Counted from the stretch's first letter, positions 124-51,163 are shown. The stretch: DNA of 52,865 bases from a virus (IMGVR_UViG_3300017785_005555:1-52865); one strand, 5' to 3'. Program-made: numbers and translations. Notes: generated by a model from the sequence alone, not told the origin.

Positions 124-2430
124 GGCTGCTTTCTTCTCGGGCGGTTCCCACGGAACCAGCTTGCCCTCGGCGTCGCGCACGCCCTCGGCGTCCTTGTACC
201 AGCGGCGCATGAGCACCGGCTTGGCGGAGATGGGGATGTCGGGGATGTAAAGCTGCATCCCCAGGCGCATGACCTCCGCCATGCGCTCGGCGGACTCGGC
301 GCCGAACTCTTCCAGGGCCTCGCCGACCAGCTCGTCATGGACGAAGATCGTGATGCGCGCGCCGAAGAGGGGGCTCTTCACGTCGCCGTGGTCCTCCTCC
401 GTCCAGAACGGGGAGTACCCGGTGTAGCACTCCTGGGCGACGTAGAAGAGGGACGCCTTGGCGCCGTCCGCTGCGAGCCCCTGGAAGTGGGTGTTGCAGC
501 CGTCGCAGTAGCCCGTGCCACCGCGCAGGCGGCCGGAGCGGGGCTGGGTGAAGGTACACTCCCCGCCGCCCTGCGCCGTGGCCTTGGAGATGTAGCGGAA
601 GAAGTCCCGCATCTCGCGCCACTTCGCCAACCAGCGCGCCTTCAAGTCCTTGCAGACCATGACGGCTTCTTCGTGCGTGTCGCCGAACTTGACGCGGTAG
701 GTCTTCCACGCCCAGATGATCAGGGTCTCGGCCCCGAGGCCGCCGGGGAAGCCGAAGTTCAACGCCTTCGACATCTGCCGCTTAGACTTCACCATCTTGA
801 AGGTGATGTCCATGTCCTCGTTGTCCACCTTGGACTCGTACACGGCCAGCACGTCTTCGTACGTGGCGGCCCTGGTGCCGCACGCCATGTACACCTGCTC
901 GTCGGTGTAGCTCTCCTCGTCGTACCCGGCCTCGGCCATGAGGGCGCGGAGCTTGGCGACGCGCTCGACGTTGATGAGGTCGGTCGCCATGTCCAGGTGG
1001 AGATCTTTGCCAGCCTGGAGCGCGACCGCCATGTCCGAATACTTGAACTCGTCGAGGCAGAACTGCGCCAGGGCGCACAGCTCGATGGTCGAGTAGTCGG
1101 CGTTGATGAACACCCAGCCGGGCCGGGGCACGACGCACTCGCGGAACCCGCCCTCGCGCGGAAGGTTCTGCCAGTTCGGGCCGAAGCAGGACGTGCGCCC
1201 CGACTCCACCAGCTCGTTCCAGCCGGCGTTGATGGGGAAGATGGCGCCGTGCGAGAAGGCCGGGATGTAGGTGTTGCCGTTGTGCTCGTCCGCCGAGATG
1301 CTGGCGAGGGCGTGCAGGATGGGCGTGCTCACCTGCTTCATCACGCCGTCGATCTTCATCATCAGCAGGACGTGGGGCTGCTTGTCCGGATGGGACTGGA
1401 GAAGAACTTCCTTCTCCGTGGAGACGGCGCCGTCTACCTTCGACTTCTTCGGCGCGGGCGGGGCCCCGTCGTAGGCGTCGGAGATGTACTGCTTCAACCT
1501 CTTCATGTCCTTGGTGCCGTCCTTCAACCGGAAGACCCCGATGTCGGGATCCGCCAGGAGGTCGCGCACCACCTTGACGTTCGTACGCAACTTCTCCGCA
1601 AGCTGGGACACGGCCACCGGGTCGGTGCGAACACCCCAGATGCCGGCGAGCTGGAGCGCCCAGGCGGCGGCGGCGGTCTCGAACTCGTTGGTGACGAAGC
1701 CCGTGTCGGGATCGACCACGGCGGAGTCGAGGTCTTCCACCTGCGCCCAGAACATCTTGTGCGTCTTGTACGCGTCGCCGAGGGCGTAGTCCCGTGCCTT
1801 CTCCGGCCACTGGTCGAGCGGCACGTTCTCCAGCTCGGCGAACCGGAGCCGCCACGCCTTCACGTCGCCGGTGATGGTGAGGGTGCCGTCGTCATTGAAC
1901 ACCGCCTTGGCCTTGTCCTCGGACAGGTCCAGGTTCCAGCGGTGCTCGAAGATCGTGCCCATGTTGAACTTCGACTGGCGCTTCTTCCCGCTGGAGAAGT
2001 CCGTGGTGAGCTGCCCCATCGCGAGGCGGATCAGCTTCTCCCGGATGCGCGTGTCCGAGACCCGGCAGTCCTCATACGCCTTGAAGATGAGCGGCAGGAG
2101 GGTCTTGTCCTTGGCGGCCAGGACGCCCCAATCGAACGCGATGTTGTGCCCTACGAAGTGGATCGTCGGGTCCAGCAGCGCCTCGCGCAGCACCTCCACG
2201 GCGTCCGTCTTGTTGAGCAGGATGGCGTCCCCGACGACGCGCCCATCAGGCAGCTCGGTGGCGAACCCCTCCACGTAGGTGGTGCGGTCGGTCCACGCGG
2301 TCGGGTGCTTCTCCGGGTACGTCTCCATCAGGGCGGTGACGCAGACCAGCGGAGGAGCGAGCAGCCCAGGGCGGATGAGATGGGACTCGGAATCCCACAC
2401 GAACAGCGACCGGCCCTGGAGCAAGCTCAT
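121..2430 (-). CDS. Family A DNA polymerase with N-terminal 3'-5' exonuclease
   Basis: Exo I WDSE, Exo II GHNIAFD, Exo III YALGD, SGRTS, motif A ADYSTIE, motif B RQMSKALNFG, motif C FVHDEL. Confidence 0.95.
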   Translation of the reverse strand: MSLLQGRSLFVWDSESHLIRPGLLAPPLVCVTALMETYPEKHPTAWTDRTTYVEGFATELPDGRVVGDAILLNKTDAVEVLREALLDPTIHFVGHNIAFDWGVLAAKDKTLLPLIFKAYEDCRVSDTRIREKLIRLAMGQLTTDFSSGKKRQSKFNMGTIFEHRWNLDLSEDKAKAVFNDDGTLTITGDVKAWRLRFAELENVPLDQWPEKARDYALGDAYKTHKMFWAQVEDLDSAVVDPDTGFVTNEFETAAAAWALQLAGIWGVRTDPVAVSQLAEKLRTNVKVVRDLLADPDIGVFRLKDGTKDMKRLKQYISDAYDGAPPAPKKSKVDGAVSTEKEVLLQSHPDKQPHVLLMMKIDGVMKQVSTPILHALASISADEHNGNTYIPAFSHGAIFPINAGWNELVESGRTSCFGPNWQNLPREGGFRECVVPRPGWVFINADYSTIELCALAQFCLDEFKYSDMAVALQAGKDLHLDMATDLINVERVAKLRALMAEAGYDEESYTDEQVYMACGTRAATYEDVLAVYESKVDNEDMDITFKMVKSKRQMSKALNFGFPGGLGAETLIIWAWKTYRVKFGDTHEEAVMVCKDLKARWLAKWREMRDFFRYISKATAQGGGECTFTQPRSGRLRGGTGYCDGCNTHFQGLAADGAKASLFYVAQECYTGYSPFWTEEDHGDVKSPLFGARITIFVHDELVGEALEEFGAESAERMAEVMRLGMQLYIPDIPISAKPVLMRRWYKDAEGVRDAEGKLVPWEPPEKKAA

Positions 2431-2574
2431 AGGAAAGTACCTTCTATACGGACTCGGCCCCGCTCGTCAGTCCCGGCGTCATACCGGCTTGCGAGCGGGG
2501 CTTTGTCGTGGACTCCAGCGATCTTTCGACCCGTACCGTGTACTTTGGTCGTCAGTCTCAATCGCGTACGGAGA

Positions 2575-2652
2575 TGGTAGCGGGGGCTGGATTTGAACCA
2601 GCGACTTCCACGGCTATGAACCGTGTCTTCTACCGGGCTGAAATACCCCGCA
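2575..2652 (-). tRNA. tRNA with CAT anticodon (Met/fMet-like; Ile2 not excluded)
   Basis: Minus strand folds to a cloverleaf: acceptor GCGGGG/CCCCGC with U1:U72 mismatch, D-stem UUUC/GAAG, anticodon stem CACGG/CCGUG with loop UUCAUAG, T-arm GCUGG-UUCAAAU-CCAGC, then A-CCA. Confidence 0.92.
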
Positions 2653-2660
2653 ACAAAGAA

Positions 2661-3254
2661 CTACGCCTGACCCTCGAACACCGGGAACCAGTTGTGGACG
2701 GTGAACGGGGTCTTCTTGACCTTCGTGATGATGCCGCGCGTCTGGCAGCGGATCCGCACGCCGCGCGACATGGTGCCGGGGAGCCCACCGGGGAGGGCCA
2801 CTCCGTTGGCGTCGGTCGGCATCCCCATCAGGGCCTCGGCCTCGTCCTCACCGATCGAGTCCGCGGAGACGGGCTCACCCTGGACGGAGCCGTAGATGGC
2901 GACCATGAGGGCCTTGATGTTGCCGAGCCACATCTCCCGGCCTTCCTTGTCGTCGGTGTAGTAGTTCACCGTCGAGCCCGGCTTCGTCTGCGGGGAGTCG
3001 CTGGTCGTGCCGAGCACGATGAAGTCGCCGACGAAGATGTCGAGCTTGCCGTTGCGGTCGTTGAACACCCGGAGGACGGACACCTCCAGATCGTAGGTGT
3101 GGTTCGCCTCCATGTAGTTGCCACCGGCATTGAACTTCGCGTCCTTCATCCCCTTGAAGAGACCGGCGCGGCCCTGGGCGAGCTGACCGGCGGCGGGGGC
3201 GGCGGGAGCAGCGGGCGCTGCGAGGGCGGACTTGGCACGAGCGAGAAGAGACAT
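2661..3254 (-). CDS. Putative single-stranded DNA-binding protein
   Basis: ~197 aa, beta-rich, SD GAGGTG, own promoter, located between helicase and polymerase. Function is inferred from synteny only. Confidence 0.45.
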   Translation of the reverse strand: MSLLARAKSALAAPAAPAAPAAGQLAQGRAGLFKGMKDAKFNAGGNYMEANHTYDLEVSVLRVFNDRNGKLDIFVGDFIVLGTTSDSPQTKPGSTVNYYTDDKEGREMWLGNIKALMVAIYGSVQGEPVSADSIGEDEAEALMGMPTDANGVALPGGLPGTMSRGVRIRCQTRGIITKVKKTPFTVHNWFPVFEGQA

Positions 3255-3263
3255 GAACACCTC

Positions 3264-3367: not shown

Positions 3368-3682
3368 TCATCCGCGCGCTTTGTTCAAGACGACGCACTT
3401 CCGCAGGTTCTCCCTGCTATTGTTGAGCGGGTCGCCGTCCACGTAGTAGACGCGCTCGTTCTTGCGCGCCTTCGCCAGGAGCCGCCCGAGGTAGATCGTC
3501 GTGCGCTTCTTGCCGACGTGCGTGCAGACATAGCCGTTGGGGCCGACGTACCAGCGGTAGTTCTTCACCAGCGGGTAGTCGGCCGGGTCGATGTAGACCC
3601 GCTCGTCCTTGGTGGTGTGCAGCACGGTGGACGCGCCGCCGTGTCCGTGCCCTACGATGTTGGGAGAGAACTTCTTACTCAT
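3368..3682 (-). CDS. Degenerate HNH endonuclease-like protein (104 aa)
   Basis: IDPADYPLV..YRW..NGYV and VYYVDGDPLNNSRENL resemble phage HNH_3 proteins; start overlaps the helicase stop (ATGA). Confidence 0.7.
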   Translation of the reverse strand: MSKKFSPNIVGHGHGGASTVLHTTKDERVYIDPADYPLVKNYRWYVGPNGYVCTHVGKKRTTIYLGRLLAKARKNERVYYVDGDPLNNSRENLRKCVVLNKARG

Positions 3683-5598: not shown

Positions 5599-6369
5599 CT
5601 ATCGGGGCGTCGCGACCGCCTGCGAGGGCTTCGGCTCGGGGGTGCCCACGATCGCGTAGCCCGCGGCGCGCAGCTTCTCACACTGAATGTAGTAGAGCCC
5701 CCACACGTCGGTCACGTCGCGGCGCAGGGGCGCCCCGTCGAGCCTCCAGGAGTTCTCCGGGCCGACGTTGCGGCACAAGCGGGCAATCACCGTGCCCTCG
5801 TTGAGGAAGTCCACGCGCTGGGGCGAGCCGTCGAGCGCGCCGAGGAACCCGTCGTACGGGGTGTCGAGCGTGACCACGGTGACGGTCATAGCGCCCGCCA
5901 CCGCCACCGCCTTGTTGGCGGCGAGCCGGGCGTACGCGAGCTGCTCGGGCACCTCGGTGAACGGCACGTAGACGCCGTTCTTCTTGAAGATGTGCTCGCT
6001 CACCACCGACGCGGCGCGGAGGACGTGCTGGATCGCGACCGCCTTCAACGCGTCCGCGGCGGAGACGATGCCCTCGGGCACCTGCTCGTTGATGACCGTG
6101 GCGAACGCCAGGAAGGTCTCGTTCGAGCGGGCAGCGATGCGCGCCAGGACCGCCTGCTCCATGGCCGCCTTGTCCGTCCCGACCACGAGCGCCGGGAGCC
6201 GGTCGAGCTGCACGAGGGCGTCGCGGGACTCCGCGAGCAGCGCCTTGATCTTCCCGTGGGTCCGCTGCTCCGCTTCACCGATGGCCGCGTAACGCGGAGC
6301 GGTGTCGTCGGTCGGGCGGTGGTAGGAGAACATCGTGGCGAGGAGAAGAGCGGTGTGCGCGCGTTGCAT
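5599..6369 (-). CDS. Hypothetical protein
   Basis: 256-aa ORF with GC3-biased codons, SD AGAGG, co-oriented with neighbours. Confidence 0.75.
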   Translation of the reverse strand: MQRAHTALLLATMFSYHRPTDDTAPRYAAIGEAEQRTHGKIKALLAESRDALVQLDRLPALVVGTDKAAMEQAVLARIAARSNETFLAFATVINEQVPEGIVSAADALKAVAIQHVLRAASVVSEHIFKKNGVYVPFTEVPEQLAYARLAANKAVAVAGAMTVTVVTLDTPYDGFLGALDGSPQRVDFLNEGTVIARLCRNVGPENSWRLDGAPLRRDVTDVWGLYYIQCEKLRAAGYAIVGTPEPKPSQAVATPR

Positions 6370-6456
6370 GGTAGCCTCTGGGCTGGGATGTGAGCGGGCG
6401 GAGGAAGGCCGGGCCCGCTCGGGAAGAACTCTGTCAGGCGAGGAAGGCGTCGCTGG

Positions 6457-8427
6457 CTACCAGCGCCCGCCCTGGTGGATCTCGACGGCGAGGGGCTTGA
6501 TGACTTCGAGCACCGCCATCGTGGCCGGGAACCGGGTGTCGGCGACGATCACGCCGTTCCAGGTCTGCTGCGTGGCGAGCGCCGCGACGAGCCTGTTGCC
6601 CTCCCCGTAGTCGAGCATCGAGTAGTGCGGCACCTTCATCTCGTGGGCGACGCGCGCCATGAGGGGGGCGAGCACGTCCTCCAGGTTCTGGGCCGACGCG
6701 AGGTTCGGACCCTTCGCCGGGCGGCTGTCGATGTAGAGCACGAGCCCGGCGCGGTTGTCCGGCGCGGCCGGGGCGGGGGCCGCCACGGTGGCGGGGGCCT
6801 CGGCGACCTTGGCGGCCCCGCGACGGGTCACGGGGACGACGGGGGCGACGACCGGCGCGGCTACCTCCTCGGGGGCGGCCTCCAGGTCGGTGATCTTCCC
6901 CTCGGCGTCCGTCACGATGACGATGGACTCGGAGAACTCGATGCTGTTGGTGAGCACCGCGCCGAACACGTCGTCCGACATGAGGTTCACCTGCTCCTCG
7001 GACCAGCCGAGACGCATGGCTTCCTCGACGGCGGCGTTGGACTGGAGATCCCAGACCACCCCGTCCTCGGTGCTCGTGTCCACCGGGCCGACCTTGGGCA
7101 GGTACACCGAGCCGTCCGCGCGCACGCTGTAGCTCTTGCCGTCCGTGCTGTTCGCCAACACCCAGATGACCGCCTCGACGGACATCTTCTCGGCCTGCTC
7201 CTTCGACCAGTTGAGGGCGGCGAGCTTCTCGACGAAGCCGCGGGGCTTGCGCTGGGCGGCGACCGGCGCGGCCGGGGTCCCCGTGGCGACCGGCGCGGCA
7301 GCGGCAGCGGTGGCGGCCTTGGCGGCGACGACACCGGCGGAGACGCCCGTGTTCTGGGCGGCGTCCGGCGGGTTCACCGTGGTGGCCTTGCCCTGCCCTT
7401 CGCGGAGCTTCGCCAGGATGCCCGCGCCGGCCGGCGTGGCGCCAGATGCAGCGACGACCGCGACCTCCTTCGCCGGGGCGGCGGGGGCGGTAGTGGACGG
7501 GGCAGCGGTGCCGCCCTCGGTGGCGGGCTGACCCTTGGCGCGGAGGGAAGTCAGAAGAGACATGGGGACCTCGGAGTGGACATTGGCGAAGCCGGCGAAC
7601 TTTCCACCGGCGGCTGGGTTGAGACGTTTGAGGGCTTCACACCGTTCCCGGTGCTGGCATCCCCGGTACGCCGAGCAGGCGTTCCAGTTGGGACTAACTC
7701 TAATCGGATCTGTTTCAAGCGCAACCTGTTTCATGCGCTTCACGGTAGCGACGATGCCATTCCATCCAGCTTCAACCTGGGCGGGATTGAAGTTTGCCAC
7801 CGTCTTCCGAACGGTCGGGGAGCCGGTCTTCTGGTAGACGATGTGCCCGCACGAGACCTCCGCCGCCGGCTGGCGGAAGGCGAGCTGGTGTAGCTCGTCC
7901 GCTGCCTTGGCGTAGGCGATCATCTGCGGAGCTTCAAAGAGTTCTTCTTCACTCTTCGCCCACTTCATGTCCTTCAAGAACTTGTGGTCGAGGATGACCG
8001 GCTTACCCTCTTCGAGCAGGAGCATGTCGATGAAGCCGGAGACGGGCACGCCCTCGATCGTCAGACCGGGGAGGGGCAGCGGGAGCGGGACGACGCCGGG
8101 CCGGCGCACCTGGGTGATGACGTGCTGCACCGGGTCCAGGTACCAGGGGGTGGCACCGGGGCGGAAGTCGAACCCGATAGGAAGTTCTACGTTAGCCCGC
8201 CCCGGCGCCGGCAGGTAGCCCTTGGACAGGGCGAGCTGGATGAGCTTGGACTTCGGGGGCTTGCCGTCCACGAGGTAATCCTCGGCCTCGGCGTGTAGTA
8301 GCTTGCCGTCCGCCTGCCCCTGGTTCTCCTGCTCTGCGATGCCGTAGATGTACCGCCACCACCACTGGCGCTCGCAGCTACGAAACTTCTCCACCTGTGA
8401 GGCGGACCAGTGGCGGAAGGTCTTCAT
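6457..8427 (-). CDS. Cas4/RecB-like PD-(D/E)xK exonuclease with long C-terminal extension
   Basis: WSASQ..C, G.LLH...E, GFIDM, ILDHK, QMIAYA and terminal C..YRGC....C (Fe-S staple pattern), then an Ala/Pro linker and a C-terminal domain; start MKTFRHW at 8427. Confidence 0.85.
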   Translation of the reverse strand: MKTFRHWSASQVEKFRSCERQWWWRYIYGIAEQENQGQADGKLLHAEAEDYLVDGKPPKSKLIQLALSKGYLPAPGRANVELPIGFDFRPGATPWYLDPVQHVITQVRRPGVVPLPLPLPGLTIEGVPVSGFIDMLLLEEGKPVILDHKFLKDMKWAKSEEELFEAPQMIAYAKAADELHQLAFRQPAAEVSCGHIVYQKTGSPTVRKTVANFNPAQVEAGWNGIVATVKRMKQVALETDPIRVSPNWNACSAYRGCQHRERCEALKRLNPAAGGKFAGFANVHSEVPMSLLTSLRAKGQPATEGGTAAPSTTAPAAPAKEVAVVAASGATPAGAGILAKLREGQGKATTVNPPDAAQNTGVSAGVVAAKAATAAAAAPVATGTPAAPVAAQRKPRGFVEKLAALNWSKEQAEKMSVEAVIWVLANSTDGKSYSVRADGSVYLPKVGPVDTSTEDGVVWDLQSNAAVEEAMRLGWSEEQVNLMSDDVFGAVLTNSIEFSESIVIVTDAEGKITDLEAAPEEVAAPVVAPVVPVTRRGAAKVAEAPATVAAPAPAAPDNRAGLVLYIDSRPAKGPNLASAQNLEDVLAPLMARVAHEMKVPHYSMLDYGEGNRLVAALATQQTWNGVIVADTRFPATMAVLEVIKPLAVEIHQGGRW

Positions 8428-8564
8428 CGCCCTGCCGGCGGCGCGAGCGGCACCGGGTAGTCCTGCGTCTGCCAGGACCGCTTGCGGATGCAGTCGCGGC
8501 ACGGGCACCAGCCCGTGGTGAACTTCCGCTCACGAAGAACTTCGCGATGGGTAGGCCCGTTCAT
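8424..8564 (-). CDS. Small CxCxxC protein (46 aa), not in the ORF track
   Basis: MNGPTHREVLRERKFTTGWCPCRDCIRKRSWQTQDYPVPLAPPAGR; ATGA overlaps at both ends. Confidence 0.55.
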   Translation of the reverse strand: MNGPTHREVLRERKFTTGWCPCRDCIRKRSWQTQDYPVPLAPPAGR

Positions 8565-11250: not shown

Positions 11251-11288
11251 CCGGGGTGGCTCCGGTGGGCGGGCGTTCGGCCAATGTG

Positions 11289-41700: not shown

Positions 41701-44700
41701 TGTTCCTGTCCCTCCTGCGCGAGCACTCCAACGACTTGGCGACGGGCAAGTACCTTGCCGGTGCCGACGCGCTGGACTTCGCGACCAAGTTCAACCTGCC
41801 CTACTACGAGGCGTGGTTCACGCCGCGTGACTTCTTCCGGCTCGAAGTGCGCGAGGTCGGTGGCAGCGGGAAAGTTCGTTCTTACGGGAGCCTGTCCCGC
41901 CAGGAGCAGGTGGGCAAGACCTGGGAGATCGTCAACGTGAAGTGGACGCCCCAGGCGGAAGACTTCTGGAAGCAGCTCGACGACATCGCCGCCGCCAACC
42001 CGGAACGCCCTCGCGCGCGCGCCATGAACGAGTACCTGCGCAGCCTCCTGCCGTGGTCGGACCCGCTCGCCACCGCGGAGGATGTCGGCTTGGTGCGCCT
42101 GTCCGACACCGTGTTCGTGCGCAACCCCGAGGTGGCGAAACAGGTGGGCCCGTTGAAGCAGCCCGTTGAGGTGCTGGAAGACGGCGTGCGCAAGATCCGG
42201 TTTGAGGATGCCGTGTCCGACGGGCTCTCCGCCGAGGTGGTGGGGTTCAAGGACGGCAAGGTCATGGTCCAGCCCATGGAGTTCGTGGACGGGTCGCCCC
42301 GGCGCTCCACCCGGCACGGTCCCGTTGCCGTGTCTGTCGAAGATCTTGCCTACATGGAGCGCGGCCGGGTGCCCCGCACGCGCGAGGGCCGGAAGTTCTC
42401 GTACGTGGGGCCTCGGACGGATGCCGAGTGGCGTGAACTGCGGGCGGCCGAGGACCGGATGCCCGGTGCGCGGTCCATGCGGTACAAGGACCAGGAGCGA
42501 TTCCTGGAGCTGAACCCGCCCAAGCGCCCGACCGCCGAGGAGTTCGACTTCCCGGTGTCCCAGCTCGACCCGGAGGCGCGCGAAGCCGCCATCCGGGCCA
42601 TGGATGCCGCCGGTCGCGCGCGAGGCGTCCCCACGCCGCGGTTCGAGGACGGTGTGAAGGCCGCACCGGCACGTCCCGCCACCCCCGCGCCTGTCGCAGC
42701 CCCGCCCCAGGCGAGTCCTGTTGCCGGGGGCACGGGTCTGGCCGAGCTGGGTGGGGCGGGCGCCGCCATCAGCGACAACCTGTACGTCATGCTGCTCGAC
42801 AAGGCGCGCAAGGGCGACGTGCTGGAGGGCGGCCAGCGGTTGCTCGTGCTCCAGATGGCGGTAGCGTTGCAGCGGCAGGGCGTGGACCTGTCCCTGGACG
42901 TGATGAAGCGTCTGGCGCAGGAGGTGATGGCGATCCGAGGGCAGAACGTGACGGGGGGCGCCTTCCAGCAGGCGGTGAAGGACGCGCTCTCCCGCGTGCA
43001 GGCAGATGTCGCCAAGGCGCAGCCCTCCGAGGGGAACCGCGTGGCCCCCGCGGTTGTTTCCGCCGGCAATAAGGACCGGGAGGTCACGGAGGCGACCAGC
43101 AAGGTGGATCGGATCGAGGCCGGGGCCGGCGAGCGTGCGGGCGCCAAGCTGCGCTACGCCGAGGCCGACCTGGAGCGCGCCCAGAACACCCTGCGCGGGC
43201 TGGGCGAGGGACTCCCCGCGGACATCCCGGAGGTCATGCGCGCTCGGCTGGCGGGCCGGCGGTCTGCTCTCGCCAACGCGCGCCGGGCACAGGCCGAGGC
43301 GGACGCCATGGCGCGCGCCAGCGCCCAGGTGCGGGCCGAAATGCGTGGGGCGTTGAAGCTGGAGCAGTACGTGCGCAAGGGCACGGCTGACGACTTGGCG
43401 AACAGCGCGCGGCACGCCGCTCTCGTCAAGGGCTCTGGCTCGGTGCCGGCGTCCACGGCGGCGACCCCGGCGCGGCGCATCTTCGAGTCCGGCCTGTACA
43501 AGACGCTCGACCGGTACGGCGTGAGCGGGGCGGGTCCCGCTGTCGCGGAGCTGCACAGCTCTCTGGCGCGCACCCTGTCCAAGCTCAACCCCGAGCGGTT
43601 CCCGACTCCCGACGCGTACTACGCCTCGATGATCGTGCGGCAGGGTGACGTGGCTCCGATGGAGGACGCTCACCGACTTCTTCGCCAGAGCGACCTGACG
43701 GACCTCAACGGCAAGCCCCTCTACCGCGCCGTCTCCACGGAGGAGGAGCTGGCCCAGGTGGTAGGCGACCTGCCGGAGCCGGAGATCTGGGAGCTGGACC
43801 ACTACAGCGTGAACAAGGACCTGGACGTGCTGCGGTCGGACGCCCACGGCAAGTACGGCACGCAGCGGTCGTCGGAGTTCAACCCCGGAAACCGGGCGAA
43901 CGACTGGAACTATCTCGGACGCGTGATGTTCTACCCCGGCGGCGCCAAGCCGGAGAGCATGATCGCCTACGGGGCGCAGCAGAAGTACACGACCCAGATC
44001 CGGGCGCGCATCTACGACTTCAAGACGGACCCGCGAAAGATCTTCCCCATCGCGCTGGCGGCGTACCGAAAGATGGAGGCCATGCCGTACAGGGAGCGGA
44101 TGAAGGTCCGTGGCTACGGGGGGCCGGACCCGTTCAACGAGTTCGAGCGCCTGCTCGTGGACCTGGGCTACGACGGGTACAAGTGGCCCATGGGGGCGCC
44201 GGCTGGCGCCGAGCCCACCATCGTCGTGACCATCCTCAACCGCGACGTTCCCATCTCGACCGGCGTGTTCCCGGTACTCGTCCCGAACGGGCCGCTGGGT
44301 GCCGTGCGCAAGGGCTCCAAGCTCGACGTGTCGCCCGACGTGGTGGGGGTGCTGAACCGACGCATGACGCTGGCCCAGGCAGAAGTCGCGTTGCGAGCGC
44401 CGGTGGAAGAACACGCCGTTCTGTTCGTCAACGGCACCCAGGCGGGGCGCTGGGGGCCGGAGCAAACGCGCGCCGCGGGGCACAACCCCCGGAACTCGTG
44501 CGCCATCGACACCGCCGTGCTGGAGCAGGTGCGCGGCCAGGGTGCGGTGTTCACGCACAACCACCCCAACGGCGGCATCCTTAGCCCGGAAGATCTGGCT
44601 GTCGCCTCGTTTGGCGACCTCGGCGAGATGCGAGCGGTACCTTCTGGGGAGAAGGGCTGGGACGACGCGTGGTTCGTGCAGCGGCCCGTCGAGGGTTGGG

Positions 44701-47700
44701 CCTCCCCGGCAGCCATCCATCAAGCATGGTCCGAGGCAGGCAAGAAGGCGTTCGCTGTCGCCCGACGGCAGATGACCGAGTTCATCGTTGCCGCCGGAGG
44801 CGATCCCTACAACGGGTCAATGGTGGGTTATACGAAGGAGAAGTGGCAGCAGCTTCTCAACGATGCCCTTGAACAGGAGTGGCGAAGTGGCCGATACCCC
44901 GAACTCCCCGAACTCTTCCGTGGTTTTACTCGATCGGAACTGGCCTCCGACGTATCCCGAGTGGACGCCGGCTCCGTTCCCGAGCGCGCTGGCGGAGTCC
45001 AGCTCCCCCTCCCTGGCATCCGGACCCTTGCCTCCGCCGAAGGCGCGGATCTCGGGCGGGTCGGACCTGGATTGGGACAAGTTCGGCTCCCCGGAGGGGG
45101 CACCCTCGCCGACATCCACGCCCAGCACCCCGACGCCGCCCGCGGCATCTTCCGGCAGCTCGGCCTCCGAGTAGAGCCGGGCCGGGCCACCGGCGCAGAA
45201 CTTCGTATCTACCCGCTCTTCGACGCGTTCGGCACCGAGCGCGCCGTGGTGGAGGAGCGGGTGCGCGCGTGGCTCAACACGGTCGGCTGGGACTTCAAGG
45301 TCTTCGGCCCCGATGAGGCGGGCGCCGGCTTCTCGCCCCCGAACTTCCGCGACTTCAACTACCAGAACAAGAACGTCTGGATCTTCCAGCCGATGGACCC
45401 CAACGGGTCCTTCCGCGACTACAACTACACGCTGCCCTGGCGCGTGACGCACGAGGTCGCGCACGGGCTGGTGAACGACGCCATCTCCGACCTGTACGGC
45501 GGCCTCGGCAAGCGGCAGGGCGCGCTCGGCGTCGCCACGAAGTTCAACGGCAGGGACGTGCCGGCCCTCACGCTGGCCGACGCGCTGCGTGCCGTGGAGT
45601 GGGAGGCCGAGACGTTCAAGGAGCAGCGCGCCATCCTGGAGCGGGACCTCGGCATCTCCATTACGGAAGAGGCGTTCCGCCAGGAGAACGGGCTGAACAT
45701 GAGCGACGCCGTGTGGCGCGCGATGACGGGGGGCTTCTCGGACCCGTCCGACCTGGGCGTGCTTCCGACGGCGGTTCACCCTGCGGATGTTCTTCGCAAC
45801 GCCCGCAACACCATGCGCGCGGCGGCCCTGGAGATGGGGCTCGACATGGGCGAGACGTTCGGCATCGAGATGAAGGCCGAGCGCGCCGCGCAGGCATCGG
45901 CGGACGGTGTGGCCTGGATCGTGGGCGAAGCTCTGGCACGCAGGGAGGCAGGCGCCACCAAGGAGCAGTTCGCCCGGTGGCTGACCGACACGATGTACAA
46001 GGCGCGCAAGGCGCCCGGCTCCTCCCCCTGGGTGCAGGGCGTGGAGGAAGGCGCTCGCATGGTGGTGCAGGCGGCGGGCATGGACGCGGACAAGGGCACG
46101 CGCTTCCTGGCGGTCGCGTGGGGCAACAGCTTGGCGACGGCGGACGAGATTGCAGGGTTGAATCGCCGGCAGTATTGGCAGGGCATGGCGGTGGACCGCT
46201 ACCCGCCGGACACCGACCGGCTGGCGGCGTCCGTGCGCACGGCTGGCGAGAACGTGGACCCCGAGGACATCCAGGGGCTGATCGACTTCCAGATGGGCCA
46301 GGGCATCATGACGTTCTACCGCACGGGGAACTTCTCCACGGTGCTGCACGAGCCCGCCCACATGTTGCGCCGCATCCTGCCGCCGGACATGCTCGCGGAG
46401 CTGGAGCAGGCCCTGGGCGTCGTGGACGGGAACTGGACGCGGTACCAGGAAGAACAGTTCGTGGCGATGTGGGAGAAGGCGGCGGCCGGCGGGTTCCTTT
46501 CGACCGGCAACCCCGCGCTCGACCGGTCGTTCCGGCAGGTGACGAACACCTTGCGCGCCGTGGCCGAGGACAGCGGCATCGCCGTCTCCCCCACCGTGCA
46601 GCGGCTGTTCGACACGCTGCACCGGGACACGGCGGGGCCGAAGGGACCGATGATCCCCGGCCGGGGGTCGCTGGCGGATGCCGAGCAGGAGCAGCGCGCG
46701 CTGGACGAGGCGTTCCGCCTGTCGAGCCGGTCCCTCCTTCGCGCCACCTGGGAAGACCGGATGGGCCGGCTGCGCCAGTGGCTGCGTCCCGCGCGCGACG
46801 TGCTCGACGGGTCGTTGAAGGAGGTGGTGAAGAACCTCATCCGTAAGGAAGAAGCCGAGCTGTCGGCGTTCAACAAGCGGCTGGCGGACGCCATCACGCG
46901 CACGAAGACGGACCCGCTGCGCGCCCTCGTGACGGACGGCGATGACCTGTCTGTAGACTTCTTCGCTGCCCTTGATGAGGGGGCGGACGGGCGGCTGTTG
47001 GACGCGGCAGCCGTGGCCTTCCTGGACCGCACGAAGATCCCCCTCTCCTCGGACGACATGCGCCTGCTCCGGGAGGCGTTGCGCACGCGTGGCTCGATGG
47101 AGGAGGTGGTGGCGGCGTTGCAGGAGGCATCACTGGCTGTCGTCAGTCGCCAGTTGGAGTACCAGGGGCGCGCGATGCGGGACACCTACACGGGCAAGGC
47201 CCTGCTCACCCAGGCGGCGGGCACCATGGCGTTGCACCACCGGTTCGAGAAGGCGGGGTTCGGTGTCGGCGCCGTGCTCCACAGCGAGGACGCCAAGGCG
47301 GCCTCGGAGTGGCTGGCGGGCACGTCCCGTTCCGACCGGGGGCGTCAGATCGTGCTGGGTGCGATGGAGGACCCGTTCAACTACATCCCGCCGACCAGCG
47401 GGGTGGCTGGGCTGCGGCGCGAGCAGATCTCCCCGTTCGGAACGACGGGCACAAAGTCCCGCGTCGGTAGCACCGTAGCAAAGATCTCCGGCACGCTGGA
47501 GGGGTCTGATGTCTACGTGCCGCGCGTCGTGCGGGACCGGCTCGTGGCCCAGATCGACGCCGTGGAGCAGGCGGCCCAGCCCCCGCTCGGTACGAAGCTG
47601 CTGCTCCGGTACTGGAAGCAGGGGCTCACGTCCGGTGTGCTCCTGGCCCGGCCCACCTACTACCTCAACAACGTGTTCGGCGACTTCGACCAGATCGCAA

Positions 47701-49643
47701 CGGTCGCAGGCTTCGACGTGGCGTTCCGGCAGTCGGCGCGTAACCTTGCGCAGAACTTCCTCGCGGTCCCTGGTGTAGCGAATGTCCTCCGGCTGGCGGG
47801 GGATGCAGGCACGATGCGTCGTGTCTCGGACATGCTCGCCTGGGGCTCCATCAGCAAGGGCGTAACGAAGGTCATGGACGGCGCCGACGAGATGATCGAG
47901 CTGGGCGGGAAGCAGTACAACGCGCGCGACCTCTTCCGCATCGGGTCCAGCGAGGGCGTGGGTGGCGTGTACTCGTCGGCCGAACTCCAGAAGGATCTGG
48001 CCGAAGTTCTCCGTAAGCGCGGTCCCGTGGGGCGTGCGTTCTCGGCGAACTCCCAGGCGGTGCGCGACGTAGCGGAGCTGATCTCCCTGCGGCAGCATTG
48101 GGGCCTGTTCCTCACGCTGGTGGACACGGGCAAGGAGCCGCGCGAGGCCGCGAAGATGACCATCGACGCCCTGTATGACTACGTGCATGGGCTTCATGAG
48201 GTCGATAAGAATGTTGTTCTCCAGCTCTTCCAGCCGTTCTGGAACTTCCAGAAGAACAATGCTCGGCGTACCGCCAGGGCCTTCTTGACGCCGGGCGTCT
48301 GGGGCGCCGGGTACTTCTCGTCCCCGACGCTCCGCATGAAGAACCTCTGGCTGGCGAAGGAGCGGGGTACCGAACTTCTTTCGGACTACCTGGACAATCG
48401 CGACATGTACGGCTTCGACACCGAGGCCATGCAGACGGACGACCCCGCCAAGTACGCGGCGTACCAGAAGGCGATTGCCGAGCTGGAAGCGCGTGGCCTG
48501 TCGCCCAAAGCCGTGCGCGAGCTGCTGTCCCGCGGCGACGAAGTGCCGGAGCTGGACGGCTTCGTGGTCGAATACTGGAACGGGGACCCCACGCGGGCCA
48601 TGCTGCCGGACTGGCTCTATAGCCGCTTCGTGGCGTACTCCCCCTACAACCGAGGCGGGGCCATGGGCGATTGGCTGCTGCGCGGGGAGGGGCGGAGCGA
48701 GGCCCCCGGCGACGACTGGCGCGCGGTGCCCATGCCCGACGACTCCAACATGGCCGCCATCGGGCAGACCCTCGGCGCCGCCGCCGTGCTCGTGAACGCC
48801 ATGCGCGCCCTGGTGCAGTCTGACCCCGGCGCCTTGGCGAGGATGTCGGCCGAGGCACGGATGGCGTTGGGCGATCCTGCGAAGAACCCCGCCGTGGTGT
48901 TCACGTTGGGCACCTTGCTGGGCTACGATGTAGACGCCTACGCGCGCACCCTGCCGCCCGCCACGGGAGATCTTCTGCACGGGGTCTTCGGCCCGCGCGT
49001 CTCGTTCGCTAACCGCGTCACCCAAACGGCGGAAAGCTCGGCGGATAGCGCCGAGTTCGCCAACCAGTACAAGATGCCGGCTGGCACCGCCGCCCTCGCT
49101 GACATGCTCGGCGTCCTGGGTCCGTCCCTGGCGGCGGCGGGTCTGATGGAGAAGGCGCTGGGGAGCGGGACCCCTGGGAAGGGACCCGGCGGCGCACCCG
49201 GCTACGCCCTGGCCGAGGGCCTGCTGGGGCAGCGCACCTACCCGGTGTCGCAGCGGGCGCAGGACGAACGCGCCGACCGTGAGGCGACTGACCGGGTGTA
49301 CGACGCCACGGCTGCGATCCCGCGGGCGGCGGCAGCCCTCATCCCGGACAAGCCCGAGACCATCCGCAAGGACGCGCGTGAGATCGAGACGGCGCGGCTG
49401 GCGCAGCTCCAGACGGGCAACCCCGAGCAGTACAAGCGGGAGATGATGGACACCTTCGCGCGGTACTTCGGCAAGTACCCGCGCGCGGCGGACGACGTGC
49501 TCCGGTTCCGGTCGATGGCTGTCTTTGCGGGGTACTCTGCTACCGATGTGGACGGCTGGGACGACGACACCGTGCTCACCAAGGTCCCCGAGCTGGCGAA
49601 GTATTTCGTACCGACGATGGCTGCCCGTTCGGACGTACGCTAA
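38745..49643 (+). CDS. Giant (~3,632 aa) polyvalent ejection protein with ART-like, JAB/MPN and two HExxH domains
   Basis: Start MADLRPED; EEH...HNHP....SPED (JAB), THEVAH, LHEPAH, HYS...RVMFY...GYDGY, TM-like WSFVWLGLIG, C-terminal FQPFWNFQK. Confidence 0.8.
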   Translation: MADLRPEDIERAKKLFATGAGVAPAEPVPAAPAPPKASAAVPPKATPRPVTYEMDAKERKAAKAGASAPSWDRLAVEAGLAPPALMSKLAPALDAMERDPLDMKALGAKPEVDPELFLRVEETDVKRAIRNAERSPGTMDAIKGLVELATPFKAAVQPEQVEAEAKVKRLEMANASEEELAQARAEVAAQKERTKRGGVNVYEPRGVVDTLGDIDRGGPAAFMRDPNSVITEEQVARLEAAAGDAEGSVSDTDNTDPDYDVADGPRTAAGSKELAVTLRKQATAARARLDNQRGAMTTNLVVELGAPGAEQARTLMAQVTEGTAPSRANQEFLARFSAWWFKQEGGERAALTGPERAALQAAADAQAKRALFSLRQGGWWPTEISEGDVKGRGKLDLLDYVKAVVLPRAEATPSGQSVRTEGPAGYVFNRMNLPISAAAEVYRGVLGGDMDAYRMLREKGGFLEALADFEELPRLKKWAMADEGTLEWTAAWSFVWLGLIGEVVTPDGFTALSKIAEIPAYLATADRGLAAARAAKGAGWVEQVRAVKGAVASDALQYADALEGSNPALARIIRDRVKGLVGLTEEGRAVQTKLGDTPRTGKSGAKQLLRDGVRSDNADDARALDSLRSGRYDEIYGKASREAIASLDQPAEGARAARSADELLPDAPPDATDDAMRVFGEPVSAGVARAMVTADDVAAALRAASKGKAPSAMRKLAANIITLLERNPELAPVVKQVRQRVSASVTAGTVDMADLRVEMLRRLLQIKPDAAQRVLARAEAAVAKRAAQVTALELEIARRDPARKAAAQAVDAKQAAVNAARAEVESMKAGPRQEPAINLDGGPTVRAGTPSDAASLEKTEPRIERDITQPGVRPTPAANEATPVVRRAGTPAVNEATPVMRRAGAQAAVVKLDPAATVVERTDAHRAIGLEAALEPLDEVKAAQRAGRYGPAERLHFAHAGEPYLRPDFIQRPPMEYAASKRAHLLFLSLLREHSNDLATGKYLAGADALDFATKFNLPYYEAWFTPRDFFRLEVREVGGSGKVRSYGSLSRQEQVGKTWEIVNVKWTPQAEDFWKQLDDIAAANPERPRARAMNEYLRSLLPWSDPLATAEDVGLVRLSDTVFVRNPEVAKQVGPLKQPVEVLEDGVRKIRFEDAVSDGLSAEVVGFKDGKVMVQPMEFVDGSPRRSTRHGPVAVSVEDLAYMERGRVPRTREGRKFSYVGPRTDAEWRELRAAEDRMPGARSMRYKDQERFLELNPPKRPTAEEFDFPVSQLDPEAREAAIRAMDAAGRARGVPTPRFEDGVKAAPARPATPAPVAAPPQASPVAGGTGLAELGGAGAAISDNLYVMLLDKARKGDVLEGGQRLLVLQMAVALQRQGVDLSLDVMKRLAQEVMAIRGQNVTGGAFQQAVKDALSRVQADVAKAQPSEGNRVAPAVVSAGNKDREVTEATSKVDRIEAGAGERAGAKLRYAEADLERAQNTLRGLGEGLPADIPEVMRARLAGRRSALANARRAQAEADAMARASAQVRAEMRGALKLEQYVRKGTADDLANSARHAALVKGSGSVPASTAATPARRIFESGLYKTLDRYGVSGAGPAVAELHSSLARTLSKLNPERFPTPDAYYASMIVRQGDVAPMEDAHRLLRQSDLTDLNGKPLYRAVSTEEELAQVVGDLPEPEIWELDHYSVNKDLDVLRSDAHGKYGTQRSSEFNPGNRANDWNYLGRVMFYPGGAKPESMIAYGAQQKYTTQIRARIYDFKTDPRKIFPIALAAYRKMEAMPYRERMKVRGYGGPDPFNEFERLLVDLGYDGYKWPMGAPAGAEPTIVVTILNRDVPISTGVFPVLVPNGPLGAVRKGSKLDVSPDVVGVLNRRMTLAQAEVALRAPVEEHAVLFVNGTQAGRWGPEQTRAAGHNPRNSCAIDTAVLEQVRGQGAVFTHNHPNGGILSPEDLAVASFGDLGEMRAVPSGEKGWDDAWFVQRPVEGWASPAAIHQAWSEAGKKAFAVARRQMTEFIVAAGGDPYNGSMVGYTKEKWQQLLNDALEQEWRSGRYPELPELFRGFTRSELASDVSRVDAGSVPERAGGVQLPLPGIRTLASAEGADLGRVGPGLGQVRLPGGGTLADIHAQHPDAARGIFRQLGLRVEPGRATGAELRIYPLFDAFGTERAVVEERVRAWLNTVGWDFKVFGPDEAGAGFSPPNFRDFNYQNKNVWIFQPMDPNGSFRDYNYTLPWRVTHEVAHGLVNDAISDLYGGLGKRQGALGVATKFNGRDVPALTLADALRAVEWEAETFKEQRAILERDLGISITEEAFRQENGLNMSDAVWRAMTGGFSDPSDLGVLPTAVHPADVLRNARNTMRAAALEMGLDMGETFGIEMKAERAAQASADGVAWIVGEALARREAGATKEQFARWLTDTMYKARKAPGSSPWVQGVEEGARMVVQAAGMDADKGTRFLAVAWGNSLATADEIAGLNRRQYWQGMAVDRYPPDTDRLAASVRTAGENVDPEDIQGLIDFQMGQGIMTFYRTGNFSTVLHEPAHMLRRILPPDMLAELEQALGVVDGNWTRYQEEQFVAMWEKAAAGGFLSTGNPALDRSFRQVTNTLRAVAEDSGIAVSPTVQRLFDTLHRDTAGPKGPMIPGRGSLADAEQEQRALDEAFRLSSRSLLRATWEDRMGRLRQWLRPARDVLDGSLKEVVKNLIRKEEAELSAFNKRLADAITRTKTDPLRALVTDGDDLSVDFFAALDEGADGRLLDAAAVAFLDRTKIPLSSDDMRLLREALRTRGSMEEVVAALQEASLAVVSRQLEYQGRAMRDTYTGKALLTQAAGTMALHHRFEKAGFGVGAVLHSEDAKAASEWLAGTSRSDRGRQIVLGAMEDPFNYIPPTSGVAGLRREQISPFGTTGTKSRVGSTVAKISGTLEGSDVYVPRVVRDRLVAQIDAVEQAAQPPLGTKLLLRYWKQGLTSGVLLARPTYYLNNVFGDFDQIATVAGFDVAFRQSARNLAQNFLAVPGVANVLRLAGDAGTMRRVSDMLAWGSISKGVTKVMDGADEMIELGGKQYNARDLFRIGSSEGVGGVYSSAELQKDLAEVLRKRGPVGRAFSANSQAVRDVAELISLRQHWGLFLTLVDTGKEPREAAKMTIDALYDYVHGLHEVDKNVVLQLFQPFWNFQKNNARRTARAFLTPGVWGAGYFSSPTLRMKNLWLAKERGTELLSDYLDNRDMYGFDTEAMQTDDPAKYAAYQKAIAELEARGLSPKAVRELLSRGDEVPELDGFVVEYWNGDPTRAMLPDWLYSRFVAYSPYNRGGAMGDWLLRGEGRSEAPGDDWRAVPMPDDSNMAAIGQTLGAAAVLVNAMRALVQSDPGALARMSAEARMALGDPAKNPAVVFTLGTLLGYDVDAYARTLPPATGDLLHGVFGPRVSFANRVTQTAESSADSAEFANQYKMPAGTAALADMLGVLGPSLAAAGLMEKALGSGTPGKGPGGAPGYALAEGLLGQRTYPVSQRAQDERADREATDRVYDATAAIPRAAAALIPDKPETIRKDAREIETARLAQLQTGNPEQYKREMMDTFARYFGKYPRAADDVLRFRSMAVFAGYSATDVDGWDDDTVLTKVPELAKYFVPTMAARSDVR

Positions 49644-49691
49644 GCTGACGCGAACGAGGTCATCCGCACCCCCGTGCGGAAGGAGGATGTG

Positions 49692-50753
49692 ATGGGACCT
49701 TGGATTACCGACAAGCTGATCAAGTCGTATCAACTGTTCGCGCGCACGATGGGGGTACCGATCGTCAACGACACGGGCTCCGACATTCCGGTGGGCAAGC
49801 TGGTCTTCATCACGGGGTTCAACGTCCCGAAGTTGAAGTTCAGCATCTCCCTGGCGGACGCCAACGTCGCGAACGCCCAGGCGGCCTGGATCACGACCGA
49901 GGCCATCAAGGCGGGGAACTCGTCCGTCTTGGCGAAGTTCTTCCGCGTGGAGCGGCTCAACACGGCGGCCGGCGCCGCCGGGGCCCTGGTGTACGAAGAC
50001 ACCACGGCGGGCGGCTGGACCCTCACCAACCCCCAGACGGCGGACAAGAGCGCGCGGGCGCACATCGTCGGCTACGTCGAGGTCTCGTCTGCTACGGTGG
50101 GCGTGATCGTGTTCGACCTGTTCTCGATCAGCTCGATCGTCGCAGGCACTCGCGACTTCGCCGCCGGCTTCCTGTCGGCGGACGCTCTCGGGCGCGCGCT
50201 CATGGCGTCGAACTTCTTCGACGCCGCTACCGTGCTGGCGAAGTTCGCGGCCAGCTCGTTCGACTTCACGGCGGTGTCGTCCGTCTTCGCGGCGGCCTCG
50301 ATCCCGGCCACGAAGCTCCAGCGCAACGTGTTGCAGTCCGCCACCATCGCGCTCACGTCGGCGCAGGTGAAGGCCCTGCGCGCGGCGCCCCAGGTGCTCG
50401 TGGCGGCGCCCGGTGCGGGGCAGGTGATCGAGTTCGTCTCGGCCAACGTCCGCCTGGACTACGGCACCAACGTCTTCACGGTCGGCGCCGGTGACGACCT
50501 CGCCGTGAAGTTCAAGGACGGCACAGGCCCGAGCGTCTCCGAGAACATCGAGACCACCGGGTTCCTCGACCAGACCACCGACATCGCGACGAGCGCCATC
50601 CCGAAGAAGGACGCCATCGTGACGAAGGCGAACTGCGAGAACCAGCCGCTCGTGCTGCACGGCATCGGCGGGGCGGAGATCGCAGGCAACGCGGCCAACG
50701 ACTCGGTGGTGCGGCTCGATGTGTCCTTCCGCGTCCACTCCACGGTCTGGTAA
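49692..50753 (+). CDS. Putative fibre/spike or capsid-associated structural protein
   Basis: SD AGGAGG; helical repeats (FDAATV.AKFAASS) and a C-terminal domain LTSAQVKAL.AAP..LVAAPGAG. Confidence 0.55.
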   Translation: MGPWITDKLIKSYQLFARTMGVPIVNDTGSDIPVGKLVFITGFNVPKLKFSISLADANVANAQAAWITTEAIKAGNSSVLAKFFRVERLNTAAGAAGALVYEDTTAGGWTLTNPQTADKSARAHIVGYVEVSSATVGVIVFDLFSISSIVAGTRDFAAGFLSADALGRALMASNFFDAATVLAKFAASSFDFTAVSSVFAAASIPATKLQRNVLQSATIALTSAQVKALRAAPQVLVAAPGAGQVIEFVSANVRLDYGTNVFTVGAGDDLAVKFKDGTGPSVSENIETTGFLDQTTDIATSAIPKKDAIVTKANCENQPLVLHGIGGAEIAGNAANDSVVRLDVSFRVHSTVW

Positions 50754-50764
50754 GGGAGGGCGCG

Positions 50765-51163
50765 ATGGAACCTGTCTACCGTCCTTTCGACCGGCGGACT
50801 GATCCTGCCCCTGTTGCCGGCAACGCGCAGCAGGAGGTCGTGATCTCCGCCACCGAGCAGGTGAAGATCCTCGTCCACGCCGTCCTGGTGAAGCGCACCA
50901 GCGGCGCGGCGGTGGGTACCAACCAGCCCCGCATCTACCTCGTAGCCGGTGACGCGGCGGACGCGGCCTCCGAGCGGTGGCGCGCTGCCGCCGCCACGGC
51001 GGCCGGTTCCCTCATCAACACCACCGGGATCAACCGGCCGCTCACGACGGTGAAGTTCCCCGCTGGCTCGGCGGACGCAGGAAAGTACGGCTTCTACTTC
51101 ATCATCGACGGGGACGTGCTCAATGCGTTCACGTACGAGATCTTCTACGAAGTTCTTCACTAA
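50765..51163 (+). CDS. Hypothetical protein
   Basis: SD GGAGG; 132 aa. Confidence 0.75.
   Translation: MEPVYRPFDRRTDPAPVAGNAQQEVVISATEQVKILVHAVLVKRTSGAAVGTNQPRIYLVAGDAADAASERWRAAAATAAGSLINTTGINRPLTTVKFPAGSADAGKYGFYFIIDGDVLNAFTYEIFYEVLH

Follow-up and report, generated by a model that had tools for sequence, protein, structure and literature searches.

The window examined here is the whole of the IMG/VR virus record IMGVR_UViG_3300017785_005555:1-52865 (52,865 nt), and the element under study is a ten-base word, GAAGWWCTTC, that is dispersed along it. The record was rated complete by CheckV with an end class of direct terminal repeats; the terminal repeat is a 123-bp overlap, leaving about 52.7 kb of unique genome, and the GC content is 65–70% along the window. 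The window is a complete 52.7-kb phage of a new lineage without a cultured relative, uncultivated, of freshwater origin and apparently lytic. Genes (n = 45) were called with our own GC3/codon-usage caller, not a standard gene finder; the reading frames at the polymerase, primase, terminase and portal sites described below were backed by homologues. A minus-strand gene block runs from 52.8 kb across the record origin to 18.4 kb, and a plus-strand block from 19.9 to 52.3 kb, the two arms diverging from a 1.5-kb stretch without coding periodicity. Family scans placed a DNA polymerase of family A, a helicase, a PD-(D/E)XK nuclease and a primase/helicase of VapE type in the left arm; in the right arm are a presumed small terminase, a large terminase, a P22/SU10-type portal, by which the genome is podovirus-like, a major head protein and an Amidase_2 endolysin. 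No integrase, repressor, partition protein or methyltransferase was found among the called genes with Pfam and PHROGs, where most proteins are ORFans and a very divergent one is possible.

Thirteen matches to GAAGWWCTTC were counted in the window, 12 of the form GAAG(AA/TT)CTTC, i.e., GAAGTTCTTC, and one of the form GAAGATCTTC. The expectation from 100 dinucleotide shuffles was 0.06, the largest count in any shuffle being 1, and the word was the top 10-mer of the genome (12 observed vs 0.21 expected under an order-2 Markov model). An original prediction, made by reading the sequence, had proposed that the word is a selected DNA signal and had listed 12 exact positions, all of which were recovered; the GAAGATCTTC copy at 20709 was absent from that hand count. 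The positions, with their strand and reading frame, are as follows.

1401–1410, minus strand (sense): exact copy in the DNA polymerase A gene, GAA GTT CTT C (E-V-L-L).
8534–8543, minus strand (sense): exact copy in an uncalled 45-aa open reading frame (ORF), GAA GTT CTT CGT (E-V-L-R), the frame being read by eye.
8564 (ATG) to a TGA overlapping ATG 8427, minus strand: the 45-aa ORF with the 8534 copy, read by eye.
9514–9523, minus strand (sense): exact copy in the VapE-like primase/helicase gene, AGG AAG TTC TTC (R-K-F-F).
10029–10038, minus strand (sense): exact copy in the VapE-like gene, GAA GTT CTT CTT (E-V-L-L).
13914–13923, minus strand (sense): exact copy at codons 13–16 of the ORFan gene 13573–13959, GAA GTT CTT CGT (E-V-L-R).
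16003–16012, minus strand (sense): exact copy overlapping the start of gene 15607–16014, ATG AAG TTC TTC.
19150–19159, minus strand: exact copy in the 1.5-kb inter-arm non-coding region, oriented like the left-arm copies.
20709–20718, no strand: palindromic variant GAAGATCTTC in the presumed small-terminase gene, AAG ATC TTC (K-I-F), common codons.
23100–23109, plus strand (sense): exact copy in the large terminase gene, GAG AAG TTC TTC (E-K-F-F).
25003–25012, plus strand (sense): exact copy in the portal gene, GAA GTT CTT CGT.
26436–26449, minus strand: extended palindrome GGGAAGAACTTCCC holding the exact copy at 26438, the only copy reversed relative to its arm.
49934–49943, plus strand (sense): exact copy in gene 49674–50753, GCG AAG TTC TTC (A-K-F-F).
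51149–51158, plus strand (sense): exact copy in the last codons of gene 50840–51163, GAA GTT CTT CAC TAA (E-V-L-H-stop), 17 nt ahead of the next start codon.

The 45-aa ORF at 8534 is one of two short ORFs (about 27 and 45 aa, 8426–8644, minus strand) that were missed by the caller and lie between the primase and nuclease genes; as read by eye they are chained by ATGA stop-start overlaps and would be translationally coupled, and the 45-aa ORF, in which the motif copy lies, has a Cys-rich CPCRDC stretch.

The excess went beyond what protein sequence and codon usage call for. Within the 45 gene calls there were 9 exact copies, compared with a mean of 2.08 (standard deviation 0.97, maximum 5) when synonymous codons were shuffled, and 0 of 2000 shuffles reached 9; the codon-preserving test that the original prediction had named as the one able to overturn it thus placed the count far outside the shuffled distribution. 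The flanks of the exact copies were not conserved, so the word is not part of a longer repeat. Its density was 227 per Mb (12 per 52.9 kb), vs 1.4–10 per Mb in 5 bacterial genomes. The word is real, strongly non-random and specific to this phage. Two narrower descriptions of it fared less well: the GAAC/GTTC of the Dnd phosphorothioate system, which is contained in the word, occurred 624 times vs 623.5 expected, with no dnd-like family in the scans, and selection is therefore on the 10-mer and not on the 4-mer; the pattern GAAN4TTC was too loose, as 12 of its 27 sites were this one word.

All 10 genic exact copies (counting the one in the uncalled ORF) read GAAGTTCTTC on the sense strand, six as Glu-Val-Leu (GAA-GTT-CTT-C) and four as Lys-Phe-Phe (xxG-AAG-TTC-TTC). 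The rare-codon spelling pointed out in the original prediction was evident: GAA-GTT-CTT is used although GAA accounts for 19% of glutamate codons, and GTT and CTT for 6.4% each of the valine and leucine codons. This spelling was found in 5 of the 13 Glu-Val-Leu tripeptides in called genes, where about 0.01 would be expected, and a sixth lies in the 45-aa ORF (by eye). Common codons were used in 8 of 14 Glu-Val-Leu tripeptides, so nothing forbids them. Synonymous change alone would permit an exact sense word at 12 places, of which 9 are exact, one is a 9-of-10 match and 2 are not (null expectation 1.8). Glu-Val-Leu was followed by a codon starting with C in 9 of 14 cases vs a baseline of 0.258 (P = 0.003), an excess that was not seen for Glu-Glu-Leu, the mirror peptide (2 of 12). 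Lys-Phe-Phe was observed 4 times vs 0.7 expected, and Lys-Asn-Phe 0 times, so that the amino-acid sequence, too, seems bent toward the word. Readings in terms of ribosome pausing or frameshifting were rejected, since the word occurs in two frames and in non-coding DNA.

Comparison with homologues points the same way at three sites. In the portal gene, the closest relative, L085 (70% identity), has GAA GTC CTC CAG where the phage has GAA GTT CTT CGT, so that the differences are synonymous apart from the next codon; this, together with the count beyond the codon shuffles, bears out a signal selected at the DNA level. In the large terminase, Lys-Phe-Phe stands where relatives carry YYY, HLY or KVF. 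The primase copy is of another kind, its peptide being kept in a 55%-identical homologue, and it may be ordinary; the suggestion that some copies are merely ordinary Lys-Phe-Phe codons therefore suits the primase and not the terminase. The second copy in the VapE-like gene (10029) falls within a linker unconserved among homologues. The extension GGGAAG-AA-CTTCCC was present at 26436–26449 as had been described (GGGAAGAACTTCCC), and it occupies a 29-nt spacer between a stop at 26436 and the probable ATG 26466 of a scaffold-like gene. It was absent from the homologous spacers of L085, L086 and L106, those of L085 and L106 being only about 15–17 nt; judged from these alignments, GGGAAGAACTTCCC is an extra insert directly before the scaffold/capsid operon. 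As far as such comparisons of sequence go, the portal, terminase and 26438 sites show recent site creation. The GAAGATCTTC copy at 20709 is probably a chance occurrence. Taken with the codon shuffles, the genic copies show that the word has been fitted into coding sequence through synonymous positions and, at some sites, through the amino acids as well.

The scaffold-like gene itself probably starts at ATG 26466 and not at 26673, the L085 and L106 homologues starting at the equivalent place; its N-terminus, MLTLLALTC, resembles a lipoprotein signal by eye.

The copies were also considered by orientation and position. Of the 12 exact copies, 11 point the way of the gene arm in which they lie (P = 0.006, two-sided binomial), the exception being 26438; on the plus strand, 8 copies read GAAGAACTTC and 4 read GAAGTTCTTC. 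Ten of the 12 lie within coding sequence, 19150 and 26438 being the only non-coding copies, and that at 19150 would be sense-oriented only if a leftward promoter-like site at 19769–19742 is real. The largest copy-free gap was 23.5 kb, from 26.45 to 49.93 kb (P = 0.018 for 12 random points on a circle), and corresponds to the structural module of scaffold, capsid, tail and giant genes. A role as promoter was rejected; the distances from copy to start codon were irregular and no promoter was called at the copies by a promoter scan.

Selection was not confined to exact copies. The five near-matches named in the original prediction (13512, 17785, 22876, 39276 and 48003) were all one-mismatch sites; four of them are given here with one further site.

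12506–12515, plus strand: 9-of-10 copy, antisense; sense strand AAA GAA CTT C, three rare codons.
17785–17794, minus strand: 9-of-10 copy AAAGTTCTTC, intergenic, 10 nt downstream of a twister ribozyme (17805–17858) and followed by CTTGACG.
22876–22885, minus strand: 9-of-10 copy, antisense, in the terminase gene; sense strand GAA GAA CTT G (E-E-L-A), the GAA GAA being used by the relative L085 also.
39276–39285, minus strand: 9-of-10 copy, antisense, in the giant gene; sense strand GAA GAA CTT G.
48003–48012, plus strand: 9-of-10 copy in the giant gene, GAA GTT CTC CGT (E-V-L-R), the only structural-module context able to turn into an exact sense copy synonymously.

The site at 17785 had been described as abutting a -35 box; a -35-like CTTGACG does adjoin it, but no promoter was called there by the promoter scan. 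A simple listing of one-mismatch variants showed no orientation bias. Against the codon-shuffle null, genic one-mismatch sites numbered 11 vs 6.4 on the sense strand and 17 vs 6.05 on the antisense strand, and 0 of 300 codon shuffles reached 17. Where one mismatch is the best that synonymous change can achieve, 10 of 61 sense contexts were fully matched (null 4.4) and 16 of 78 antisense contexts (null 5.35). The most enriched pair of rare codons was GAA-CTT (9 vs 1.02), and 8 of the 9 pairs were preceded by an A-ending rare codon to give AGAACTT(C); partial words are therefore built specifically in the reverse orientation as well. The selection on antisense partial matches favours a site read as double-stranded DNA, with graded strength, and speaks against a signal purely in RNA or purely in one DNA strand; the exact copies are polar all the same.

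Two self-cleaving ribozymes lie among these sites. Both are Twister-P5 ribozymes on the minus strand, at 16047–16100 (49.4 bits) and 17805–17858 (51.1 bits), above the Rfam gathering threshold; they bracket one gene, 16106–17707 (533 aa, weak DUF932 match), so that the predicted self-cleavage would excise this cistron from the left-arm transcript. Each is followed by a motif copy (16003) or near-copy (17785).

We examined whether relatives of the phage carry the word. No DNA-level relative was found among GenBank phages by megablast or blastn; tblastn with the terminase gave only matches below 60% identity (22–28% among those listed), and single-protein scans of IMG/VR with the primase and polymerase gave no match. 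A terminase search reached 20 IMG/VR and 15 metagenome loci at 42–77% identity, the nearest being fragments, and none of the loci so found had more than one copy of the word or an analogous dispersed word; zero copies were counted in 18 of 20 loci and in 5 of 5, each locus having 0–1. Repeats in L106 were considered as an analogous dispersed word and rejected, as they form one tandem array. An alignment of the primase gave only distant VapE-bearing elements without the motif; 78 of 84 loci examined there lacked the word, and 4 of the 6 with matches were the window's own pieces. In the search for a host the primase alignment led to 25 loci, 23 with no copy and none with more than one. The best of these loci, L120 (G001), is a 92.7-kb contig of a metagenome-assembled genome labelled ‘proteobacterium’ with a syntenic replication module at positions 6281–19741 (polymerase 37%, helicase 41%, nuclease 32% and primase 39% identity) and a counterpart of the small gene 14483–14863 at 46% identity. 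It has no motif, and no portal homologue was found in its genome; from this gene content L120 may be a prophage or other element sharing the replication module, and may offer a weak hint of the host. A host search by endolysin scan of genomes gave no match. Five bacterial genomes reached via the loci, none a known host, had 8–49 copies of the word per 3.2–5.8 Mb, like the reversed-word control. The phage was present in 13 freshwater DNA runs, with no RNA run among those listed; the four runs examined gave contigs of a single strain, in which the sites were unchanged and no read ends were visible. Full-text literature matches to the words were unrelated by title among those listed, and were presumably primer or construct sequences.

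We tentatively suggest, as the reading to which we give the most weight while holding it well short of established, that the copies are binding sites of a putative sequence-specific DNA-binding protein, probably phage-encoded, and that the perfect sites act directionally on transcription. Occupancy would be graded with match quality. A perfect site would act directionally on a passing polymerase, in the manner of stoperators and Tus-Ter, so that perfect sites inside operons would be tolerated in one orientation only. The reversed perfect site at 26436–26449, before the scaffold/capsid operon, would then be the blocking one and might serve as a switch between the terminase-portal block and the late structural genes. 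A more ambitious version, which we consider unlikely as a whole, is that some 40 graded sites, 12 of them perfect, mark the chromosome for a new kind of DNA-binding protein, with the perfect sites as directional barriers and the reversed site gating the late structural genes; this would be an independently evolved stoperator-like logic, mainly in coding DNA, serving lytic timing and not lysogeny, possibly coupled to ribozyme processing.

Several observations weigh against such binding sites. Scans of the called genes with Pfam and PHROGs turned up no helix-turn-helix (HTH), ribbon-helix-helix (RHH), repressor, integrase or ParB. Gene 13573–13959 has an RHH-like N-terminus, seen by eye only; as a candidate binder it was not upheld, having no homologue and, with E values of up to 10 allowed, no Pfam match, and its single-sequence structural model was of low confidence (pLDDT 44.9). 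The motif was not carried by the relatives examined, so that comparative support is absent. Twelve identical 10/10 copies with random flanks hold more information than a regulator needs, and a nuclease or base-pairing would therefore fit better. Both twister ribozymes are followed by a same-strand copy within 60 nt (post hoc P about 7e-4), which hints at a role at the RNA level. Rare codons cluster in general, adjacent rare-rare pairs numbering 317 vs 155.7 expected with the exact copies masked, so that some of the excess of near-matches is not motif-specific. Antisense contexts able to become exact numbered only 3, and 0 of 3 is weak evidence. Orientation is itself confounded, since the direction of transcription coincides with that of any replication starting where the arms diverge, and with coding constraints.

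Known regulatory words offer partial parallels to directional protein-binding sites. Ribbon-helix-helix or dimeric operators, e.g., the 8-bp met box, are normally clustered at promoters. The word shares with them a short, near-two-fold-symmetric site of 8–10 bp that would suit one dimer and, on the reading favoured here, graded affinity for partial matches; unlike them it is spread through coding DNA, and the RHH-like N-terminus encoded at 13573–13959 is an assignment by eye. An alphaproteobacterial LexA box was considered and rejected, GTTC-N7-GTTC being found once in the window, at chance level. The original prediction had compared the word with the stoperators of mycobacteriophage L5. As described in passages of PMC9283540, stoperators are asymmetric 13-mers bound by a monomeric repressor with an HTH and a stoperator domain; in the temperate phages that have them they occupy promoters and short gaps between genes, their orientation correlating with the direction of transcription. 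In cluster A mycobacteriophages (L5, TipsytheTRex) and Streptomyces phage R4, as described in excerpts of PMC9283540 and PMC10276819, many copies of a word are spread over a two-arm genome of about 50 kb, word orientation tracks transcription, and the word is phage-specific and not common to relatives; in all of these the present phage is alike. Because the exact copies follow the direction of transcription, the stoperator is the best functional analogy. The word is nevertheless not a member of the stoperator family: it is a 10-bp quasi-palindrome, GAAG-WW-CTTC, with unconserved flanks and not an asymmetric 13-mer, 10 of its 12 copies are inside genes, and no HTH repressor, integrase or ParA/B was found in any gene called here with Pfam and PHROGs. 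Dispersed, oriented words in phage genomes are of a known kind; the form is new here, a quasi-palindromic 10-mer that lies mainly in coding DNA and is accompanied by graded partial sites, in a phage that seems to be lytic.

The copies could instead be recognition sites of a phage-encoded site-specific nickase that leaves localized breaks in one strand of the packaged DNA, of the kind found in T5, phiKMV-like phages and tf, an explanation that we judge unlikely. The excerpted text of PMC3517423 describes tf as a 46-kb podovirus with two convergent gene sets, and reports 14 nicks, each at a 9-bp word that is identical in 11 cases, with an uneven spread and mostly inside genes; the nick sites of tf, T5 and phiKMV are all on one physical strand there, and near-matches in tf are scarce (3 in the genome). 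With those sites, as far as that text goes, the present word has in common a similar number, length and exactness, an uneven spread and an intragenic position, in a genome of similar size with two gene sets; twelve identical 10-bp copies with random flanks in a podovirus-like genome resemble the tf case, strict identity at all ten positions suits a nuclease, and a small HNH endonuclease encoded at 3368–3682 (weak PHROG match, E = 0.002; HNH motif by eye) is a candidate enzyme. What separates the two is strand and tolerance. The sites of tf, T5 and phiKMV-like phages keep to one physical strand, but here the word switches strand with the arms (8 copies vs 4 on the plus strand); and near-matches, scarce in tf, are here enriched, built of rare codons and found in both orientations.

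A signal in RNA is quite improbable. On this view a sequence-specific ribonuclease or RNA-binding protein would cut or bind messenger RNAs at GAAGUUCUUC; together with the two twister ribozymes, the site would serve one strategy of transcript processing, acting on early and middle but not on late structural messages. All 10 genic exact copies are indeed on the sense strand, the 23.5-kb structural module has no exact copy, the same-strand copies follow the two ribozymes within 10 and 34 nt (the 16003 copy being the one 34 nt downstream of 16047–16100), and the motif tends to be unpaired in local folds, although without a common structure. Antisense partial matches were, however, selected at least as strongly as sense ones (17 vs 6.05; 16 of 78 vs 5.35; AGAACTT from rare codons), which an RNA reading leaves unexplained, the perfect copy at 26438 would be transcribed as its complement, no shared RNA fold was found around the copies, and no Rfam family overlapped any of them.

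Chi and KOPS are short host-genome words that are over-represented on one strand relative to replication or transcription and are read by host machines; the known ones are 5–8 nt long, rich in G and without palindromic symmetry. A polar signal of this sort for recombination or replication, that is a Chi-like site taming a helicase-nuclease (host RecBCD, AddAB or AdnAB, or a phage PD-(D/E)XK nuclease with helicase) or a sequence orienting a translocase, would have the copies point away from an origin at 18.4–19.9 kb; we rate this as improbable. The orientation does flip at the point where the arms diverge, 11 of 12 copies being consistent, the phage encodes a 656-aa protein with a PDDEXK_1 nuclease domain and a helicase, and the 1.5-kb non-coding region with its tandem repeats could hold an origin. 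The word is likewise short and skewed to one strand; unlike Chi and KOPS words as they are known, it is longer and quasi-palindromic. In the five arbitrary bacterial genomes, none a known host, it stood at background density. Cumulative GC skew showed no switch at 19.5 kb, and selection on antisense partial matches misfits a strictly polar single-strand signal.

The genome shows a second adaptation at the level of DNA sequence. There were 0 copies of CCCGGG, GAGCTC, CAGCTG, CTCGAG, CACGTG, GACGTC, CTGCAG, AGGCCT, TGGCCA, AGCGCT, CTCAAG, ACTGGG, CTCAG and CTAG, and 1 copy of GTCGAC, 12–52 copies being expected for each of the avoided restriction-type words, and 12–34 for each of the zero-copy words other than ACTGGG and CTAG. 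Leucine is spelled TTG before AAG or CAG, avoiding CTGAAG, CTCAAG and CTGCAG, and the pattern of avoidance is largely common to the relatives L085, L106 and L120. Synonymous sites in the genome are clearly under DNA-level selection. Restriction avoidance does not account for the enriched word, as common Glu-Val-Leu spellings occur elsewhere in the genome. That the copies are DNA modification targets (of a methyltransferase, or of GAAC/GTTC phosphorothioation), or else a by-product of restriction-avoiding recoding and rare-codon clustering, is the least probable of the explanations: restriction avoidance has visibly shaped the synonymous sites, rare codons show a general twofold clustering and the word does contain GAAC/GTTC, but that 4-mer stands at its expected count, the family scans turned up neither a methyltransferase nor a dnd-like gene, 8 of 14 Glu-Val-Leu tripeptides keep common codons, exact copies also lie in non-coding DNA (19150, 26438), and a host restriction target would be expected to be depleted and not enriched.

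The case demonstrates that selection on a DNA sequence of ten bases can override the choice of codon, and even of amino acid, in essential phage genes (polymerase, primase, terminase and portal). If it is a directional protein-binding site, genome-wide operator control would no longer be confined to temperate actinophages but would take in a phage that seems to be lytic, and coding sequence too; should it be a nick site or Chi-like, it would add a new specificity to phenomena of still unexplained biological role. The twelve positions provide a precise handle on phage or synthetic DNA, and the genome is a compact example in which an oriented word, extreme restriction-site avoidance and two twister ribozymes around one gene are found together.

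Other features of the genome were noted in passing. The inter-arm non-coding region (18357–19882, 1.5 kb) may be an origin and control region. It contains the following.

18385–18420 (approximately), minus strand: a tRNA T-arm-like stretch, not called by ARAGORN or Rfam.
19491–19563: a 31-bp tandem repeat, many GC-rich inverted repeats being found in the region besides.
19690–19750: an AT-rich patch.
19769–19742, minus strand, and 19836–19864, plus strand: divergent promoter-like sites, by consensus match only.

A single ORF of 3632 aa (38745–49643, plus strand) takes up a fifth of the genome. The giant protein had no Pfam, PHROG or PDB sequence match; a virion RNA polymerase was considered and could not be demonstrated from these searches, and an internal virion protein, a tail protein or a polymerase are guesses at its role. 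Gene 14342–14863 (plus strand) is the sole well-supported plus-strand gene within the left arm; it is conserved in L106, L120 and L121, where it stands beside the primase, is preceded by a divergent promoter-like pair at 14172–14217, and looks by eye like a RuvC-like resolvase, with no Pfam match. The start of gene 19883–20113 has a lipobox-like LLAC, also by eye. Lastly, a tRNA-Met gene (anticodon CAT; 2575–2652, minus strand) is located between the polymerase gene and gene 2661–3260.

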